Source of the DNA: Terriglobales bacterium
GTDB lineage: Bacteria; Acidobacteriota; Terriglobia; Terriglobales; Acidobacteriaceae
NCBI GenBank assembly: GCA_035651035.1
Contig: DASRGM010000056.1
Location: forward strand, 2,877-66,876
DNA: 64,000 bases
Direction of reading: 5' to 3'
Shown here: piece after piece, positions 1,192-7,499 of the stretch
Layout of the letters: every line of letters starts with the position of its first letter
Numbering within the stretch: position 1 is the first letter of the stretch
The notes under the pieces: model-generated
The model's input: the letters and a program-made list of their open reading frames with translations, nothing else
Databases searched by the model: none
What the model was told of the DNA's origin: nothing
Made by a program: the position numbers and the translations under genes

Positions 1192-2421
1192 TTACACGCC
1201 CGAGGAGATCAACGACGCTGCAGTGGGCGTGCGCAAGCGGCCATTACCATTGCCGTTGCGGCTGTTGCTGGCGTTTCGCCAGTTCACATGCGGCAGGAAA
1301 ACGGAGGTGTCGATGCGGTCGCTGTACTTGAGCGCAATACCGATCATGGAGTCCAGCAGCGAGTCCGACAGGAGGTGTGGCTGGAGGCCGAGATCGATGA
1401 GCTTGGAGTGCTTCGCGTTGTAGTAATGCGTCTCGGCTTCAACCCGCGGATCGGGCAGATGGTCGATGTCCACTTTAAGGCCGAGTTTCTTGGCCGCGGC
1501 CTGCACCATCTGCGCCAGCTCCAGCACTGAGAACTGTTCGGTGAACTGGTTGTAGACGCGGAACTCTCCCGCATCGGCGGGATTCATACAGGCAATTTCG
1601 ACGCAGCGGATGGTATCGCGAATGTCGAGGAAGCCGCGTGTCTGGCCGCCCTTGCCGTAAACGGTGATGGGATGACCGGCTGCTGCTTCAATGCAGAAGC
1701 GGTTGAGGGCTGTGCCAAAGATCTCATCGTAATCGAAGCGGTTGATGAGCGCTTCGTCGAGAGCGGTCTCGTCCGTCATCGTGCCGTAGACAACGCCCTG
1801 ATTGAGGTCGGTGGCGCGCAGTCCCCAGGCCTTGCAGCAGAAATGAATGTTGTGGCTGTCATGCACCTTGGAGAGGTGATAGAACGAGCCCGGCTGCTTG
1901 GGGAAAGGAAGGTTGTCAGAACGGCCGTTGTGCTCAATCCGGATGTAGCCTTCTTCGATATCAATGTTGGGCGTGCCATATTCGCCCATGGTACCGAGTT
2001 TTACCAGGTGGCAATCGGAGTCGAACTCGCGGATCGCGAACAGCAGGTTGAGCGTGCCGACCAAATTGTTGACCTGAGTGAAAGTGGCATGCTCGCGGTC
2101 GATCATGGAATAGGGCGCCGACCGCTGCTCGGCGAAATGAATTACTGTGTCGGGCTCGAAGTCCCGGATGAACGATGACAGGAAAGCATAATCCGTCATG
2201 TCGCCGACAAAGACCTCGATCGTCTTGCCGGTCAGGTCCTTCCATACCTTCAGGCGCTCATGCAGGGAGCGAATCGGCGTCAGGGTCTGAACGCCGAGAT
2301 CGAAATCCCACTGCCGGCGGACGAAGTTGTCCAGAATGGCCACGTGGTGGCCCTTGTTGGACAGGTATAGTGCGGTTGCCCATCCGCAGTAACCATCCCC
2401 TCCCAGCACTGCAATTCTCAT
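1192..2421 (-). CDS. sqdB: UDP-sulfoquinovose synthase (SQD1/SqdB family)
   Basis: 409-aa ORF, colinear as I recall with plant and cyanobacterial SQD1. Shared motifs: [74 protein letters not shown]. The ATG overlaps the upstream gene's TGA (ATGA). Confidence 0.9.
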
Positions 2422-4571
2422 GCATCCTCCTCAGGGCTTGTACAGTGTAGCGAGGCTTCTGGAACGCTGCTGCCACGCTTCAAACTCCGGCACGGCAGGC
2501 GCGACACGGCCACTCCGCGAGCCGCTGCTTCCCTCCACATGGCGCGATCCTGGCGCAAGGGGAGAAAATCGGCTCCATTTAGCGGCTCGAATCCACTACC
2601 TAAACGAATATACCGGGTTTGCGGCGCGATTGCAGGTTTTGTCAACCGGCTCTCGCGCGAGTAGAAGTCAGTTTGGTACTGCCGAAAGGCAGCGGGTCGT
2701 GCTGCTGCGGCCGGCAACTGCTGCTCCTCCGATGCCTGCGGCGGCGCTGCAAGCCCTGTCTGGAGCGCTTCCGGAAGCAGAGTTGAGTTTGGCAGAGGCA
2801 GGTTGGTGAAGAGGTACTTGCCGCCACTCTCCGCGACCACATTCAGCTTCTCGCTACCCACCACACCTTCCAGTCGCGGCAGGGCTGCGTGGCCCGCCAC
2901 CAAGTAGTATCGCTCAGGCGTGGCCCAAAGTTCCTTTAGTTGCGCGTCGTCGATGAAGACGTTTGGCGCGTCCGGGGCATAGGACCCGTAGGACAGGTTC
3001 AGGATGCGGCCCTTCAGCAGCAGCGCCGTACGATTGGTGTAGAAGAACACCGAGGAATACGCGTAGTAGTGCTTGTCGACGATCAGCTTGCCCTCGGGCG
3101 AACGCAGGATAGCTTCGGCCAGAGGACGCGACGAGAAGTAGGGATCGAAAGTGACCATTGCAATGCGCGCCGCCTGGAAGAACAACAGCATCATCACAGT
3201 GGTGCATAGGAACGCTCTCTTGGCTCCGGCGCGGAAGGTCCCGATAGCGCCGATCACGCAGGCGATGGCTGCCAGCAACAAAGGTGTCCGCAGGTATGCG
3301 AACGAGCGTATCGTCAGGTCCTCCATATGTCCGAGCGAGAGAGTGTAAGCGGACGGATGCGAGGTGAGCGCGTTGAAGATGTCTCCCGGGGTCGGCACAT
3401 TGCGATCAATGACGAGAATTGCGATGATCACAGCCGCTGCGCAACCGGCAATAGCGGTCAGGACCGCCGTACCTCGCCGAATCCACTTGCCCTCAGATGC
3501 CATGGCACAGCCCAGCAGCAGGGCCATTGCCGGGTAAATTGGCATCGAGTAGTACTCCTGCGTGGTGGAAAAGGTGAAGAACACCAGCACTACACCGATC
3601 CAGCACAACGCCAGCAGACGCGCGCGTCCGGCGCGGTCGGCCGGCCGGAACGAGAGCTTGGCGATGGCAGGGAAGTACACGCTCCACGGAAACAGCCAGA
3701 CCAGGTGAAACAGCCAAAACCAGACAACCGGGACGGTGTTGTAATCGCGCGGATAACGCAGGTTCAGGAAGCGCAGTAGCTGCTCGTTGATAACGAAGAA
3801 CCACAGGAAGCCGTGATATTCGCCCGGGCCGCTGTGCATCGACCATGACCAATACGGCGGGTTGCGCAGGGTAGCCAGCACGTGCCACGGCACGGCAATC
3901 AGCAGAATGACGGCGAGCCCGCTAAACGGACGGATACGCTTCCAGGTCTTCCTCAGAAACAGCTGCTTCGTCAGAAAGAGATAAATCAGACCCGCAGCGA
4001 CAGGGAACACAACCGCGATGAGGCTCTTCAGCAACAGGCCCGTACCCGTGCTTGCGGCGAGGATGAACGCCCACAAGGCGGGATGTGGTTCGTCATCGTC
4101 GGTCACGCGCAGCAGCGCCCACATTGCCAGCGTGATGGTGAATGTGAGAATGACATCCGGAATGACGACGCGGGTAAACAGGAACAGCCCAATGCAGGTC
4201 GCCATGACCAGCCCGGCGTAAAAGCCGATCTTCTTTCCAAACGCCCATATACCGAAAGCGGCCGTCAGCAACGGCAAGGCGACGCAGAAGAGCGCGATGG
4301 GCAGGCGCGCCGCCCAGTCCCGCACGCCAAAGATCTTGAATGAGCCCGCCATCAACCAATAGACCAGCGGCGGTTTTTCCAGGTAGGCGATGCCGTCGAG
4401 CCGGGCGGTGACATAGTCGCCGCTAGTCAGCATATTGTGCGCAATCTGCGCCTGGACCGAATCGACGTCGTCGGAAAGCGAAGGTGGAGAGATGATCCCG
4501 ACCAGGTAGACCGAAGCGGCGATCAGCAGCAGCGCTAGATATATGCGCCAATTGCGGGAGTGGATGACCAT
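2418..4571 (-). CDS. GT-C fold glycosyltransferase, ArnT/PMT_2-like (GT39/GT83 type)
   Basis: ORF is open 2418..4646. I placed the start at MVIHSRNW (4571), but 4646 is also possible. There are many TM helices and a first periplasmic loop [10 protein letters not shown] typical of ArnT/PMT_2 enzymes. The last ~130 codons are low-complexity with lower GC3, so the C-terminal end is less certain. Confidence 0.8.
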
Positions 4572-6681: not shown

Positions 6682-7128
6682 GTGTACGATGATCGAGTGC
6701 CGCACGTCGAGAGCGCCCCTCCTCACCAGCATCTGAAAACCTACGTTCTCATTGCCATCATGGTGATAGCGGGGCCGGTCGGCAATTTGCTGATTGCTAA
6801 AGGTATGCGCCAGGCTGGGCAGATTCCGCTTTGGCCTCCTTCGGCCCTGGTGCCCGCTTTCCTGCGGGTCTTTGGGTCGCCGACGATCTGGGTCGGAATC
6901 GCCTCCCTGATCACCTTCATCGTGGCCTACATGCTGGCGCTGTCGCTTGCCGATTACAGCTTTGTGCAGCCCGCGGCAGCGCTTGGGTACGGAGTGGTCG
7001 CCGTACTCGGCTACTTCATCCTGCACGAATCGGTTTCCCCGCTGCGCTGGGCCGGCATCGCGGTGATCTGCTTCGGCGTTGCCTTCATCCGCAACACTCC
7101 CCCTCGCACCACCGAGACTGCCGGCTGA
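6682..7128 (+). CDS. half-size EamA/DMT-type membrane protein (4 TM)
   Basis: 148-aa ORF with a GTG start (6697 is an alternative). It has four hydrophobic helices and EamA-like composition. Confidence 0.7.
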   Translation: MYDDRVPHVESAPPHQHLKTYVLIAIMVIAGPVGNLLIAKGMRQAGQIPLWPPSALVPAFLRVFGSPTIWVGIASLITFIVAYMLALSLADYSFVQPAAALGYGVVAVLGYFILHESVSPLRWAGIAVICFGVAFIRNTPPRTTETAG

Positions 7129-7499
7129 TGCTGGAATTCGTCCTATTTGTGTTGATCATCGTGGTCGGCACCGGAGGCGAGCTTTGCCTGGGCCGCGCCA
7201 TGCGAGAAACCGGAGAGCTGGAGCGCTTCCGGGCGGGCGCGGCGGCCAGGCTGATCTGGCGTGCGCTGCGCGTGAAGTGGATCTGGATCGGCGTCTCCAT
7301 GATGACACTTGCCTTCTTTTCCCTGCTCCTGCTGCTCTCGTTCGAGCAGGTCAGCTTTGTGGTTCCGGTAACCGCGTTAAGCTATGTCGTAGGCGCCCTG
7401 GGAGGGATATTCTTCCTCCGGGAAAGAGTCGCGGCGCAGCGTTGGATCGGGATTGGGCTGGTGTGTGTTGGGGTGACGCTGGTGCTGCTGGCCCAGTGA
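7128..7499 (+). CDS. half-size EamA/DMT-type membrane protein (4 TM), partner of the previous gene
   Basis: 123 aa, read from MLEFVLFVLII within ORF 6831..7499. The ATG overlaps the previous stop (TGATG). Four TM helices. Confidence 0.7.
   Translation: MLEFVLFVLIIVVGTGGELCLGRAMRETGELERFRAGAAARLIWRALRVKWIWIGVSMMTLAFFSLLLLLSFEQVSFVVPVTALSYVVGALGGIFFLRERVAAQRWIGIGLVCVGVTLVLLAQ

Follow-up and report, generated by a model that had tools for sequence, protein, structure and literature searches.

What would a non-phototrophic bacterium make with a UDP-sulfoquinovose synthase whose gene has no sqdX or sqdD partner? The question is raised by a locus of a soil acidobacterium near the left end of the window (the whole 64-kb stretch of DNA that was analysed), where sqdB is joined to genes for a membrane glycosyltransferase and an amidotransferase. 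The features of the locus and its flanks are as follows.

94..912, minus strand: PEP-mutase/isocitrate-lyase superfamily protein, 272 aa (PF13714, 255.6 bits), past the operon terminator
1133..1158, minus strand: terminator-like hairpin of the asnB/GT-C/sqdB operon (13-bp stem, UUCG loop, U-rich tail)
1192..2421, minus strand: sqdB, UDP-sulfoquinovose synthase, SQD1 orthologue, 409 aa (matches to NF041015 and the SQD1 structure)
2418..4571, minus strand: ArnT-like GT-C glycosyltransferase of the PMT_2 family, 717 aa (Pfam PMT_2, 64.8 bits)
4535..6472, minus strand: AsnB-type glutamine-dependent amidotransferase, 645 aa (GATase_7, 156.5 bits; Asn_synthase, 297.5 bits)
6503..6523, minus strand: candidate promoter/operator motif TTGTGATAG-TTTAGTTACAA, its ends TTGT...ACAA in the minus-strand reading
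6682..7128, plus strand: EamA/DMT half-transporter 1, 148 aa, 4 TM (Pfam EamA, 22.5 bits, under the cutoff)
7128..7499, plus strand: EamA/DMT half-transporter 2, 123 aa, 4 TM (Pfam EamA, 31.2 bits, over the cutoff)
7510..8808, plus strand: MacB/FtsX-type ABC permease without an adjacent ATPase (MacB_PCD, 124.3 bits; FtsX, 58.8 bits)

The sqdB operon and its divergent transporter pair

The asnB-like, GT-C and sqdB genes form one overlapping minus-strand operon that ends in the hairpin, and the EamA pair diverges from it. HMM searches and ORF reading bear out all gene positions and identities that the initial annotation had claimed for 1192-7499. Both of the overlaps it had described are also present: asnB and the start of the GT-C gene share 37 nt (with identical gene calls on contig L151), and the sqdB ATG overlaps the GT-C TGA in gcATGAga, with GGAGGA shortly upstream. 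The hairpin starts 34 nt past the sqdB stop and folds as RNA at -26.6 kcal/mol (z = -2.5), a stability reached by none of 200 shuffles; a simple terminator scanner does not call it because the U-run lies partly inside the stem. The motif at 6503..6523 is found about 30-50 nt upstream of asnB within the 209-bp divergent intergenic region. In an alignment of asnB/EamA intergenic regions it is kept in 11 of 12 loci and the remaining spacer is not alignable, making it a candidate promoter or operator.

The sequence marks SqdB as a genuine UDP-sulfoquinovose synthase of the SQD1 type. It matches Arabidopsis SQD1 (PDB 1QRR) with 68% identity over 382 ungapped columns (E 7.7e-190; both SQD1 structures, 1QRR and 1I24, match at E about 1e-189). 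The motifs GTMGEYG and FYHLSK are intact. A homologue diverged to other SDR chemistry would instead produce another UDP-6-substituted or 4-keto sugar; its 486.7 bits against the NCBIfam UDP-sulfoquinovose synthase model NF041015 (E 4.5e-146) do fall under the equivalog cutoff of 575, and accessory oxidoreductases in several lineages suggest further tailoring of the sugar. Such divergence is nonetheless scarcely credible given the full-length, gapless match to a crystallised enzyme with the catalytic Thr, Tyr-His and Lys all kept.

The GT-C start was taken as the ATG at 4571, with an alternative upstream ATG at 4646 giving the longest ORF. Hydropathy predicts about 12-13 TM segments in residues 1-475, followed by a soluble C-terminal part whose last ~120 aa are of low complexity and present only in the nearest relatives. 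Its assignment to the ArnT/PMT_2 class holds: besides the PMT_2 match, ArnT is its nearest solved relative (5EZM, E 1.7e-20), and 122-125 of 125 homologues keep equivalents of ArnT D55, E56, E84, K85, D158, R270 and Y345. D55/E56, K85 and Y345 have roles in catalysis or in contacting the lipid-carrier phosphate (PMC7801869). The ArnT Zn ligands H265/H267 are replaced by N/Q, and the match to the NCBIfam ArnT model (E 3.5e-21) reaches 75 bits with a cutoff of 567.

The first gene of the operon, asnB, has a GTG start and encodes the N-terminus M-C-G-I with Cys2 as nucleophile. Its AsnB-family identity is confirmed by the GATase_7 and Asn_synthase domains and by TIGR01536 (467.6 bits, over the cutoff); TIGR03108, the XrtA/PEP-CTERM amidotransferase model, gives 501.7 bits, under its cutoff of 816.9. 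It lies directly upstream of GT-C in 128 of the 140 loci having both genes. Across the intergenic region, the two EamA genes overlap by one base (TGATG), and each half has four hydrophobic segments. The resemblance to ArnE/ArnF proposed earlier stands for this architecture of overlapping 4-TM halves but not for sequence, as the pair scores 20.8-25.7 bits against NCBIfam ArnE with a cutoff of 92 (EamA1, E 3.4e-4; EamA2, E 9.9e-6, 25.7 bits). The halves are candidate subunits of a heterodimeric flippase for lipid-linked sugars.

A conserved module and its fifth gene

The window locus is the local copy of a conserved module of Terriglobia (Acidobacteriota). Among 52 SqdB-anchored Terriglobia loci that have flanks of 8 kb or more on either side, the partners found within 10 kb are GT-C in 45, EamA in 41, AsnB in 39 and GT21 in 38, so that SqdB is linked more tightly to GT-C (87%) than to GT21 (73%). 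The linkage recurs in more than 100 distinct loci in shuffled gene orders, which places it far beyond chance, and only 6 of 155 distinct SqdB genes lack a nearby partner. The initial annotation had named in advance a lack of sqdB/GT-C linkage in relatives, together with an sqdX/sqdD gene elsewhere that accounts for SQDG, as grounds against its proposal; the sqdB/GT-C/EamA linkage proves to be conserved. Co-directional GT21-EamA1-EamA2-(AsnB)-GT-C-SqdB operons exist (e.g. L198, L199, L206-208, L212 and L214), including some without AsnB, and 10 loci that combine SqdB, GT21 and EamA lack both this GT-C within 10 kb and any alternative one. No description of the sqdB/GT-C/AsnB/EamA wiring was found in the literature searched.

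The absence of an sqdX/sqdD partner, also claimed at the outset, extends to the relatives. The larger ORFs scanned in the window include no GT2, GT4 or GT8 gene, the gene table for the 8.8 kb past its left edge lists none either, and no GT4 or GT8 gene lies near any of the 155 SqdB genes, including the SqdB-only loci inspected. Ordinary SQDG synthesis, with an sqdX/sqdD-type enzyme elsewhere in the genome and an incidental neighbourhood, has a precedent in cyanobacteria with unlinked sqdB and sqdX (PMC13436972), and the GT4/GT8 scan covered sqdB neighbourhoods. It is very unlikely, however, in view of that uniform absence, of a five-gene linkage that persists through shuffled orders and of an Edaphobacter species description that names no SQDG in its polar-lipid profile (PMC11354219). 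The wiring speaks for an envelope-borne sulfo-sugar rather than the usual photosynthetic sulfolipid.

The fifth conserved gene of the relatives, the "missing GT2", encodes an HpnI-like GT21 membrane glycosyltransferase. All 12 GT21s tested match the HpnI model TIGR03472 over their full length (264-297 bits, E 1e-78 to 1e-88; cutoff 310). The closest solved structure is ceramide glucosyltransferase (E 6e-25), and GtrB, ArnC and DPMS give no match at E <= 1. The D3 and KRxRW ((K/R)xxRW) motifs of hydroxyl-acceptor GT2 enzymes are kept at >= 95%; the D3 equivalent is not conserved in Pren-P GTs, and the DxD motif of GT21 reads DsDvRV, without their DADLQx signature. The earlier expectation that an ArnC/GT2-like gene merely lay outside the window therefore failed: none of the related loci has an ArnC/GtrB-type polyprenyl-phosphate GT2 as a conserved neighbour. 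Because the only conserved membrane GT-A is HpnI-like, we can only infer that the sugar passes from its nucleotide to a polyprenyl-phosphate carrier. By tblastn, GT21 is found neither in the window nor in the 8.8 kb past its left edge. In this lineage it has drifted away, with sqdB still joined to the asnB/GT-C operon, and the source genome must encode it elsewhere, if at all; in relatives without GT21 beside sqdB, it was found elsewhere in the same assembly in all five cases.

GT-Cs in a sulfoquinovose-gene context form one large clade, in which the ArnT-H267 position is Q in 90 of 90 members versus H in 22 of 33 AsnB-only homologues. AsnB-GT-C pairs at 56-66% identity occur with neither sulfoquinovose genes nor a GT2 nearby, and about one in three GT-C-anchored loci has the pair alone. 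The pair is therefore an older module with no intrinsic link to sulfoquinovose, and the GT-C family can use a donor made elsewhere. AsnB-only GT-Cs stand beside a block of phage genes in about 11 Bryobacterales loci and lie at the edge of 21 IMG/VR contigs, reminiscent of prophage-side surface-glycan modification modules.

Possible fates of the sulfo-sugar

The explanation tentatively preferred here is that sulfoquinovose is linked to a lipid, flipped and passed on by GT-C. SqdB would convert UDP-glucose and sulfite to UDP-alpha-sulfoquinovose, which SDR, FAD, GFO-type or radical-SAM oxidoreductases may modify further in some lineages. The inverting GT21 would load the sugar on an isoprenoid lipid in the cytoplasmic leaflet, here polyprenyl phosphate, and the EamA heterodimer would flip the anionic product. 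GT-C would take it as donor, its conserved Asp/Glu/Lys/Arg/Tyr site binding the carrier phosphate, and would place sulfoquinovose on an acceptor in the envelope; the examples of ArnT and the GalA-adding Rgt enzymes make a position on lipid A, LPS or another glycolipid the most plausible one. On that acceptor or on a companion sugar, cytoplasmic AsnB might amidate a carboxylate or form an acetamidino group. If so, the envelope would carry a decoration that is free of phosphorus and permanently anionic.

If GT21 charges the lipid, the cluster would be self-sufficient, no second membrane GT or Pren-P GT being found among its conserved neighbours. The tighter SqdB/GT-C linkage and their translational coupling fit a GT-C that handles the SqdB-derived sugar, and the co-directional operons have the architecture of three-component periplasmic glycosylation systems (PMC11127046). 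The Arn-like route first proposed thus retains its genes, conserved linkage and ArnT residues, but loses the ArnC/GtrB-type GT2 and the sequence likeness to ArnE/F. Counting against lipid-linked transfer, GT21 does not look like a polyprenyl-phosphate GT in its best matches or its motifs. The 10 loci without GT-C, the missing GT21 of the window and the 8.8 kb beyond, the AsnB-GT-C pairs without sulfoquinovose genes and the weak EamA-ArnE similarity also speak against it.

It is quite possible that GT21 instead puts sulfoquinovose on a lipid hydroxyl, most plausibly in the bacteriohopanetetrol side chain, else on diacylglycerol or ceramide, to give an anionic beta-sulfoquinovoside; such an end product, e.g. 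a hopanoid, and the polyprenyl-phosphate route are about equally likely. The EamA pair would then flip the product to the outer leaflet for onward transport, and GT-C and AsnB would decorate that glycolipid, or else the same envelope structure, with the polyprenyl-phosphate sugar supplied by a GT2 encoded elsewhere. The full-length HpnI matches of all 12 GT21s, the ceramide glucosyltransferase structure and the hydroxyl-acceptor motifs argue for this sulfoquinovosyl lipid, as do the SqdB-GT21-EamA loci without GT-C, the AsnB-GT-C modules without sulfoquinovose genes or GT2 and the occurrence of the module in hopanoid-making Terriglobia of subdivisions 1, 2 and 3. Genomes of SD1/SD3 Acidobacteria contain 'hpnI' and hpnJ but not hpnK (Damste et al. 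2017, PMC5462960), which would be in keeping with an orphan HpnI paralogue that uses a different donor, and unidentified glycolipids have been described in Edaphobacter (PMC11354219). Weak hints of lipid trafficking come from the MacB/LolCE-type permease after EamA2 in the window's lineage and from a weakly LolA-like secreted protein beside the cluster in two lineages. However, a sulfoquinovosyl lipid gives no direct chemical reason for the tightest linkage, that of SqdB and GT-C, needs a second, unlinked donor pathway and sits poorly with a lineage in which GT21 drifted away and sqdB stayed with asnB/GT-C. To our knowledge, dedicated small 4-TM flippase pairs serve polyprenyl-phosphate sugars and not hopanoid glycosides. 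No shc, hpnH, hpnG or hpnJ occurs among the conserved GT21 or SqdB neighbours, and neither a sulfonated hopanoid nor SQDG of Acidobacteria is reported in the literature searched.

The two halves of the cluster might also be independent, AsnB and GT-C modifying a surface glycan or lipid A with another sugar and SqdB, GT21 and EamA making an unrelated product, all co-located as envelope-remodelling genes under common regulation, e.g. by nutrient limitation. Each half does occur alone, and the phage-side AsnB-only GT-Cs are in keeping with this. Independence is unlikely all the same, since overlapping stop and start codons join GT-C and sqdB in the window, single co-directional operons mix genes of both halves in many relatives and the sulfoquinovose-context GT-Cs are a coherent clade with its own residue in the active-site region.

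Relation to known systems and to flanking genes

The cluster shares with the Arn pathway of lipid A aminoarabinosylation (ArnA/B/C/D, ArnE/ArnF, ArnT) a dedicated nucleotide-sugar enzyme, an overlapping 4-TM EamA/DMT half-transporter pair and a GT-C with the ArnT catalytic and phosphate-contacting residues. Unlike Arn, its sugar is anionic (a sulfonate) rather than cationic; ArnA, ArnB, ArnC and ArnD homologues are absent, and the sole candidate for charging the lipid is GT21/HpnI-like, not ArnC-like. The GT-C has no Zn-site histidines and is far under the ArnT cutoff, as the EamA pair is under that of ArnE, and the operon includes an AsnB amidotransferase.

Three-component periplasmic systems (GtrA/GtrB/GtrC, the GalA-adding RgtE/RgtA-D and pentofuranose systems) likewise join a synthase of lipid-phosphate sugars to a small flippase and a GT-C, with all three often encoded in a single operon. 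The Rgt enzymes are a precedent for ArnT-like GT-Cs that attach anionic sugars to lipid A and LPS. The cluster differs in its first component, which is of the GT21/HpnI family, for which we know of no polyprenyl-phosphate acceptor, in a flippase candidate of EamA rather than GtrA type, and in sulfoquinovose as donor sugar, for which no precedent is known there. Pentofuranose systems show that a first enzyme of GtrB type is not required (PMC11127046).

With SQDG biosynthesis (SqdB/SQD1 plus the GT4 SqdX/SQD2, or the GT8 SqdD with SqdC), the cluster shares its first enzyme, at 68% identity to SQD1; its partners differ, being membrane GT21, GT-C, EamA and AsnB with no GT4/GT8, and the organisms are non-phototrophic. 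In Sulfolobus, sulfoquinovose joins a dolichol-pyrophosphate oligosaccharide on the cytoplasmic side, and an STT3-type GT-C then transfers the oligosaccharide en bloc. This Agl3/AglB N-glycosylation is the one established case of UDP-sulfoquinovose feeding a lipid-carrier-dependent, GT-C-completed glycoconjugate and not SQDG (PMC4388408), but the GT-C of the window is ArnT-type, from a single-sugar transferase family, and its host is a bacterium. The HpnI/HpnK/HpnJ route (BHT to GlcNAc-BHT to cyclitol ether) is matched by the full-length HpnI similarity of GT21 and by hopanoid-producing acidobacterial lineages. It differs in that GT21 stays consistently under the HpnI equivalog cutoff and has sqdB, EamA and GT-C as its linked genes, not hpnJ/hpnK or any other hpn gene, that SD1/SD3 Acidobacteria lack hpnK (PMC5462960) and that the donor would be UDP-sulfoquinovose, not UDP-GlcNAc.

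Of the flanking genes, the PEP-mutase-type gene is doubtful as a member of the cluster. Its product is far under the cutoff of every named NCBIfam equivalog, and the gene is a conserved neighbour only among the closest relatives, lying between SqdB and GT21 in L001, L004 and L071-073 and beside GT21 alone in L169. The MacB/FtsX-type permease, beginning 11 nt past EamA2, is possibly a lineage-specific accessory part, its membership uncertain. Orthologues (60-84% identity) follow EamA2 in ~28 loci of the same family, and a relative at 50-51% identity adjoins a stand-alone GT21 in 5 loci.

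Organization and linkage of the sulfoquinovose cluster

The cluster consists of three genes on the minus strand and a divergent pair of EamA half-transporter genes; a permease gene, a possible accessory, follows the pair. All of the gene coordinates put forward in the initial annotation were correct.

Genes of the cluster and the permease gene beside it (window coordinates)
1192-2421, minus: sqdB (Pfam/NCBIfam assignment)
2418-4571, minus: PMT_2/ArnT-like GT-C glycosyltransferase, 717 aa from the ATG at 4571; the longest ORF begins at 4646
4535-6472, minus: AsnB-type glutamine amidotransferase, GTG start (Pfam/NCBIfam)
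6682-7128 and 7128-7499, divergent from asnB across a 209-bp spacer: EamA half-transporters
7510-8808, starting 11 nt after the second EamA gene: MacB/FtsX-type permease

The GT-C gene and asnB overlap by 37 nt, and the GT-C TGA is overlapped by the sqdB ATG (gcATGAga), with GGAGGA upstream. Folding alone predicts a hairpin 34 nt past the sqdB stop, with a 13-bp stem, a UUCG loop and a tail rich in U (-26.6 kcal/mol, z = -2.5); scans for sigma-70 and terminator consensus sequences did no better than on shuffled sequence. The overlaps and the hairpin together suggest that asnB, the GT-C gene and sqdB form one unit that ends after sqdB. At 6503-6523, 30-50 nt upstream of asnB, there is a conserved 20-nt motif whose ends are inverted (TTGT/ACAA); on the asnB strand it reads TTGTGATAG-TTTAGTTACAA. 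Of 12 relatives, 11 retain the motif, and the remainder of the divergent spacer is not alignable. The motif may act as a promoter or operator for the cluster.

The window SqdB aligns with Arabidopsis SQD1 (1QRR/1I24) over 382 ungapped columns at 68% identity (E 7.7e-190, 634 bits). It keeps GGDGYCGW (the Rossmann GxxGxxG) and klgTmgeyg, retains the SQD1 catalytic residues Thr145, Tyr182-His183 and Lys186, and has the features of an extended SDR. On the NF041015 equivalog it scores 486.7 bits, under the cutoff of 575. The SQD1 comparison is judged the stronger test and was weighted above this score because of the near-complete identity with a characterised enzyme, and it is extremely unlikely that this homologue yields a product other than UDP-sulfoquinovose. 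By sequence, there is a solid case that UDP-sulfoquinovose is made and is genetically tied to membrane and periplasm-facing enzymes rather than to a synthase of the sulfoquinovose lipid SQDG.

Peptide-pattern searches of one-genome-per-species contigs were anchored on GT-C (70 loci), on SqdB (the best 80 of more than 586) and on GT21 (the best 80 of 562), a membrane glycosyltransferase found beside SqdB in relatives. Almost all anchored matches belong to the Terriglobia (Acidobacteriaceae, Korobacteraceae, Bryobacterales and Acidoferrales/gp2); the labels of a few bins assigned to Verrucomicrobiia, Binatia, Limnocylindria and Eremiobacterota may be binning errors. A complete cluster is present in the cultured Tunturiibacter gelidiferens M8UP28. 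The SqdB-anchored set is the unbiased one, and 52 of its best 80 loci extend at least 8 kb on both sides.

Partner genes within 10 kb of SqdB (52 SqdB-anchored loci)
GT-C: 45/52
EamA: 41/52
AsnB: 39/52
GT21: 38/52

The initial annotation had proposed an Arn-like sulfoquinovose route against which a lack of sqdB/GT-C linkage in relatives would count; this linkage is clearly conserved. Across all fetched loci, GT-C, EamA and GT21 are all near SqdB for 75 of 155 distinct SqdB genes, and six of the 155 lack any partner nearby, a count that the anchoring biases. The genes occur in widely differing orders, among them AsnB-GT-C-SqdB, SqdB-AsnB-GT-C-GT21, GT21-EamA-EamA-AsnB-GT-C-SqdB, GT21-EamA-EamA-GT-C-SqdB and divergent layouts. 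Such variety is the signature of selection for linkage, not of inherited synteny. AsnB is placed directly upstream of GT-C in 128 of the 140 loci that have both.

Enzymes and transporters of the cluster

The GT-C protein matches PMT_2 at 64.8 bits (gathering threshold 26.1) and carries about 12-13 hydrophobic segments in residues 1-475, with a non-hydrophobic tail after them. Among solved structures, ArnT alone is related to it by sequence (5EZM, E 1.7e-20). The ArnT residues D55/E56, which form the active site, and K85 and Y345, which contact the phosphate of the lipid carrier (PMC7801869), all have conserved counterparts in the alignment of the window protein, as do E84, D158 and R270; the equivalents of the whole set are retained in 122-125 of 125 aligned homologues. 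The ArnT zinc ligands H265 and H267 are replaced by N and Q. With a score of 75.4 bits on the ArnT equivalog (cutoff 567), and with no arn genes in the window or the related loci, the protein is best classified from its sequence as ArnT-like, not as ArnT.

In a neighbour-joining tree, one large GT-C clade contains members that almost all occur with SqdB, GT21 and EamA, with or without AsnB, and in the basal lineages AsnB is the sole partner beside GT-C. Both kinds can be present in a single metagenome-assembled genome (two loci, L006 and L047). At the ArnT H267 position, Q is found in 90 of 90 GT-Cs with a sulfoquinovose context and H in 22 of 33 homologues that adjoin AsnB without sulfoquinovose genes nearby (AsnB-only). 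Besides this Q/H exchange, a single strict specificity position separates the two groups (A105 versus R/C), and such differences are too few for inferring the donor. In ten loci, SqdB, GT21 and the EamA pair occur with neither GT-C nor AsnB within 10 kb and with no alternative GT-C. Because of these separable contexts and the GT-C tree, AsnB-GT-C looks like an older pair that was later joined to an SqdB-GT21-EamA module.

The AsnB N-terminus at the GTG start, M-C-G-I-A-G-F, supplies the Cys2 nucleophile. The protein, which combines GATase_7, GATase_6 and Asn_synthase domains, scores above the cutoff of the general model for asparagine synthase, TIGR01536 (467.6 bits, cutoff 267.1); its second-best score is to the exosortase-associated amidotransferase model, where it falls below the cutoff. 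The EamA proteins, of 148 and 123 aa, are encoded by genes with a one-base overlap, match Pfam EamA and have four hydrophobic segments each. Their proposed resemblance to ArnE/ArnF holds for architecture and not for sequence membership, with 20.8 and 25.7 bits on the ArnE equivalog (cutoff 92) and similarly weak scores on TIGR03340. The MacB/FtsX permease has no adjoining ATPase gene, is kept after the second EamA gene across Acidobacteriaceae and Korobacteraceae loci at 60-84% identity, and has, in five loci, a relative (50-51%) next to stand-alone GT21 genes. The permease could serve as a partner in lipid extraction or export, or could simply belong to the numerous MacB-like paralogues of Acidobacteria.

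The initial annotation had noted that the ArnC/GT2-like polyprenyl-phosphate glycosyltransferase to be expected for its route is not in the window. Enzymes of the GtrB/ArnC/DPMS family are indeed absent from the scanned larger ORFs of the window, as they are from L151, a contig that overlaps its left edge; they are not a conserved neighbour elsewhere either, and the conserved GT-A enzyme of the related loci is GT21/HpnI-like. It emerged from ORF clustering of the related loci as a membrane glycosyltransferase of 385-395 aa (Pfam Glyco_transf_21) that co-occurs with SqdB. Twelve of 12 diverse members match the HpnI model TIGR03472 over its full length at 264-297 bits, always under the cutoff of 310, and the cluster-associated GT21s are thus assigned by sequence to a sister subfamily of HpnI. 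A homologue search with GT21 gave no bona fide HpnI sequences, the matches listed all being at least 79% identical, and source records name the homologues "ceramide glucosyltransferase" or "glycosyltransferase". The only solved relatives are ceramide glucosyltransferases (E 6e-25). The consensus has an N-terminal TM and keeps D1, DxD (DsDvRV), D3 (aDD) and KRxRW at 95% or more. Polyprenyl-phosphate glycosyltransferases have in common DADLQx, TM helices at the C-terminus accompanied by juxtamembrane helices, and a pair of arginines for the phosphate, and the equivalent of GtrB D157 is not conserved in that family (PMC12690121, ArnC structure). Set against these features, the motifs and family of GT21 look like those of an enzyme that glycosylates a lipid hydroxyl rather than polyprenyl phosphate.

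The conserved neighbours of GT21 are SqdB, EamA, GT-C, AsnB, an SDR and an FAD oxidoreductase; genes of the hpnJ, hpnK, hpnH and shc types are absent from the annotated conserved neighbour clusters (representatives of the larger clusters). Comparison with a related locus (L001) had placed a GT21 gene about 1.1 kb beyond the left end of the window. That position was ruled out by L151, which is 99.94% identical to window 1-12421 and reaches 8.8 kb further, since GT21 is absent from these extra 8.8 kb as well as from the 64-kb window. In five relatives without GT21 beside SqdB, the gene turns up at another place of the assembly, either at a distance of 16-18 kb or on a different contig. When apart from sqdB, GT21 is flanked by an SDR (17/20) and a DAO-type FAD oxidoreductase (19/20), and the stand-alone form is a fixed trio of SDR (333 aa), GT21 and DAO-type FAD oxidoreductase (347 aa). 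Other lineages have a GFO/IDH/MocA oxidoreductase, a GalE-like SDR epimerase or a radical-SAM/SPASM enzyme among GT21, EamA and SqdB.

Loci with GT21 and oxidoreductase layouts
GT21-anchored: L156, L157, L159-L161, L163-L165, L171, L172 and others
L195: 11194-14185
L223: 11167-15551

In PDB and NCBIfam, the accessory SDR, FAD-oxidoreductase and GFO-like proteins matched generic families alone. The presence of oxidoreductases beside GT21 suggests lineage-specific tailoring of the sugar or of the lipid acceptor.

Candidate routes to an envelope sulfoquinovose glycoconjugate

Functions beyond family membership are read here from sequence and gene context. On that footing, soil Acidobacteria probably place sulfoquinovose, or a tailored derivative, on their envelope by a route new to bacteria, and this could take either of two forms. 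The favoured, still tentative reading is a three-component route in which GT21 would charge an isoprenoid phosphate with sulfoquinovose, the EamA pair would flip the lipid-linked sugar and the GT-C would move it from the carrier to an envelope acceptor, such as lipid A, LPS or another periplasmic acceptor. AsnB would amidate a carboxylate, or make an acetamidino group, on the target of the GT-C. GT21 would then be the first known polyprenyl-phosphate glycosyltransferase of the HpnI family, supplying Und-P-sulfoquinovose to the ArnT-like enzyme. This reading is preferred because the operons are built like known three-component systems, the cluster has no further glycosyltransferase to charge a lipid, SqdB is linked most tightly to GT-C, up to translational coupling, and the carrier-phosphate site of the GT-C is conserved. 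It also draws on the EamA pair, since polyprenyl-phosphate sugars typically have small dedicated flippases.

The main rival is a real possibility that still falls short of an even chance. Here GT21 would make a sulfoquinovosyl lipid, most plausibly bacteriohopanetetrol sulfoquinoside; the EamA pair would flip this sulfonated hopanoid, and GT-C with AsnB would decorate the glycolipid or the same envelope layer with a donor encoded elsewhere. Such a route takes the GT21 family at face value, and the range of the module matches that of hopanoid-producing Acidobacteria, where SD1 and SD3 genomes have "hpnI" and hpnJ without hpnK (Damste et al., PMC5462960). The AsnB-only GT-Cs must likewise use a donor encoded elsewhere. 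It is unlikely that AsnB-GT-C and SqdB-GT21-EamA are independent modules that are merely co-regulated. More improbable again is ordinary SQDG synthesis with an unlinked sqdX: neither GT4 (SqdX/SQD2) nor GT8 (SqdD) genes occur among the scanned larger ORFs of the window, in the L151 gene table or near any SqdB in the inspected loci, including those with SqdB only.

The window system has parts in common with each of Arn, the Gtr/Rgt-type three-component systems, HpnI-dependent hopanoid glycosylation, SQDG synthesis and archaeal Agl3/AglB, and it fails at least one defining feature of each. As in three-component systems, a GT-C and a small multi-TM flippase candidate are encoded together in the window; unlike in those systems, there is no GtrB/ArnC/DPMS-type glycosyltransferase here. 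Archaeal N-glycans are a known exception to SQDG as the product of sulfoquinovose. A 2026 review still describes bacterial sulfoquinovose synthesis as SqdB-SqdX and regards the sugar as essentially a phototroph SQDG product (PMC13436972). Full-text literature searches found no paper linking UDP-sulfoquinovose with undecaprenyl (phosphate) or ArnT, sulfoquinovose with HpnI or hopanoids, or SQDG with Acidobacteria.

Either leading model, if true, would give the first bacterial sulfoquinovose glycoconjugate other than SQDG. In acidophilic oligotrophs it would be a surface lipid whose negative charge needs no phosphorus and does not depend on pH. The replacement of phosphate or carboxylate charge by a sulfonate would be a new envelope chemistry, attractive for organisms that are acidophilic and starved of phosphorus. 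Acidobacteria are a dominant soil phylum and Terriglobia are among the most abundant soil bacteria; the cluster would thus add a non-phototrophic, terrestrial and previously uncounted source to the sulfoquinovose cycle. The three-component route would bring both a sulfo-sugar and a new family of first enzymes into periplasmic glycosylation of this kind. Sulfonated hopanoids would constitute a new class missed by standard analyses and of importance to biomarker geochemistry; they could also account for the "orphan hpnI without hpnK" of subdivision 1 and 3 Acidobacteria.

Neighbouring genes

A gene of the PEP-mutase/isocitrate-lyase superfamily lies at window 94-912 (PF13714, 255.6 bits; 51 bits on the true PEP mutase model), and its product matched no named NCBIfam equivalog. 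In the closest relatives its homologue separates sqdB from GT21, and in one locus (L169) it adjoins GT21 alone. Beyond the window's left edge, L151 12325-15544 encodes an Acyl_transf_3 membrane acyltransferase, a secreted 289-aa protein (13522-14391) and an APH-like protein. The 289-aa protein has no Pfam family and an AlphaFold model too poor for use (mean pLDDT 51.5), and belongs to an unannotated family of at least 8000 proteins. In 13 gp2/Acidoferrum loci the gene right behind the EamA pair encodes a homologue (48-54% identity, weak LolA_like match).

Loci with a homologue of the 289-aa protein beside the second EamA gene
L104, L105, L106, L119, L123, L125, L128, L129, L133, L134, L137, L140, L148

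The protein was rejected as a sixth component, since other subdivision-1 genomes have its trio with Acyl_transf_3 and the APH-like gene at a site remote from the sulfoquinovose genes.

An AsnB-only GT-C is followed, within about 400 bp, by a block of phage genes (large terminase, portal, capsid and others) in about 11 Bryobacterales-type loci.

Loci with a phage block after an AsnB-only GT-C
L032-L034, L038, L043, L045, L048-L050, L060

No tRNA genes adjoin these phage-flanked loci, and 21 IMG/VR viral contigs (L239-L259) bear a GT-C of the AsnB-only type at their very edge. The phage-adjacent AsnB-GT-C pairs may be prophage cargo (lysogenic-conversion-like) or may just flank an integration site or a domesticated element.

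A few kb from the cluster, the minus strand bears two paralogues in tandem (10447-11526 and 11727-12902) that belong to TIGR03118, a family annotated as PEP-CTERM-associated, and a PEP-CTERM-motif protein is encoded at 35497-36195 (+). Their joint presence suggests that the organism probably has an exosortase system.

Other genes of the window
8847-10367 (-), 53145-56171 (+) and 56118-57758 (-): two MalQ paralogues (about 50% identical) and a 1008-aa alpha-amylase-family protein, belonging to alpha-glucan metabolism and unrelated to the sulfoquinovose cluster
13009-15589 (+): OmpR-type response regulator and HAMP histidine kinase, about 5 kb from the cluster
39080-40108 (+): SIS+CBS protein of the KpsF/GutQ type (arabinose-5-phosphate isomerase-like, Kdo pathway)
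44257-50924 (+): ImuA-like (RecA-fold), ImuB-like (IMS family) and DnaE2-like (1263-aa Pol III alpha) proteins, in the arrangement of an SOS 'mutasome'
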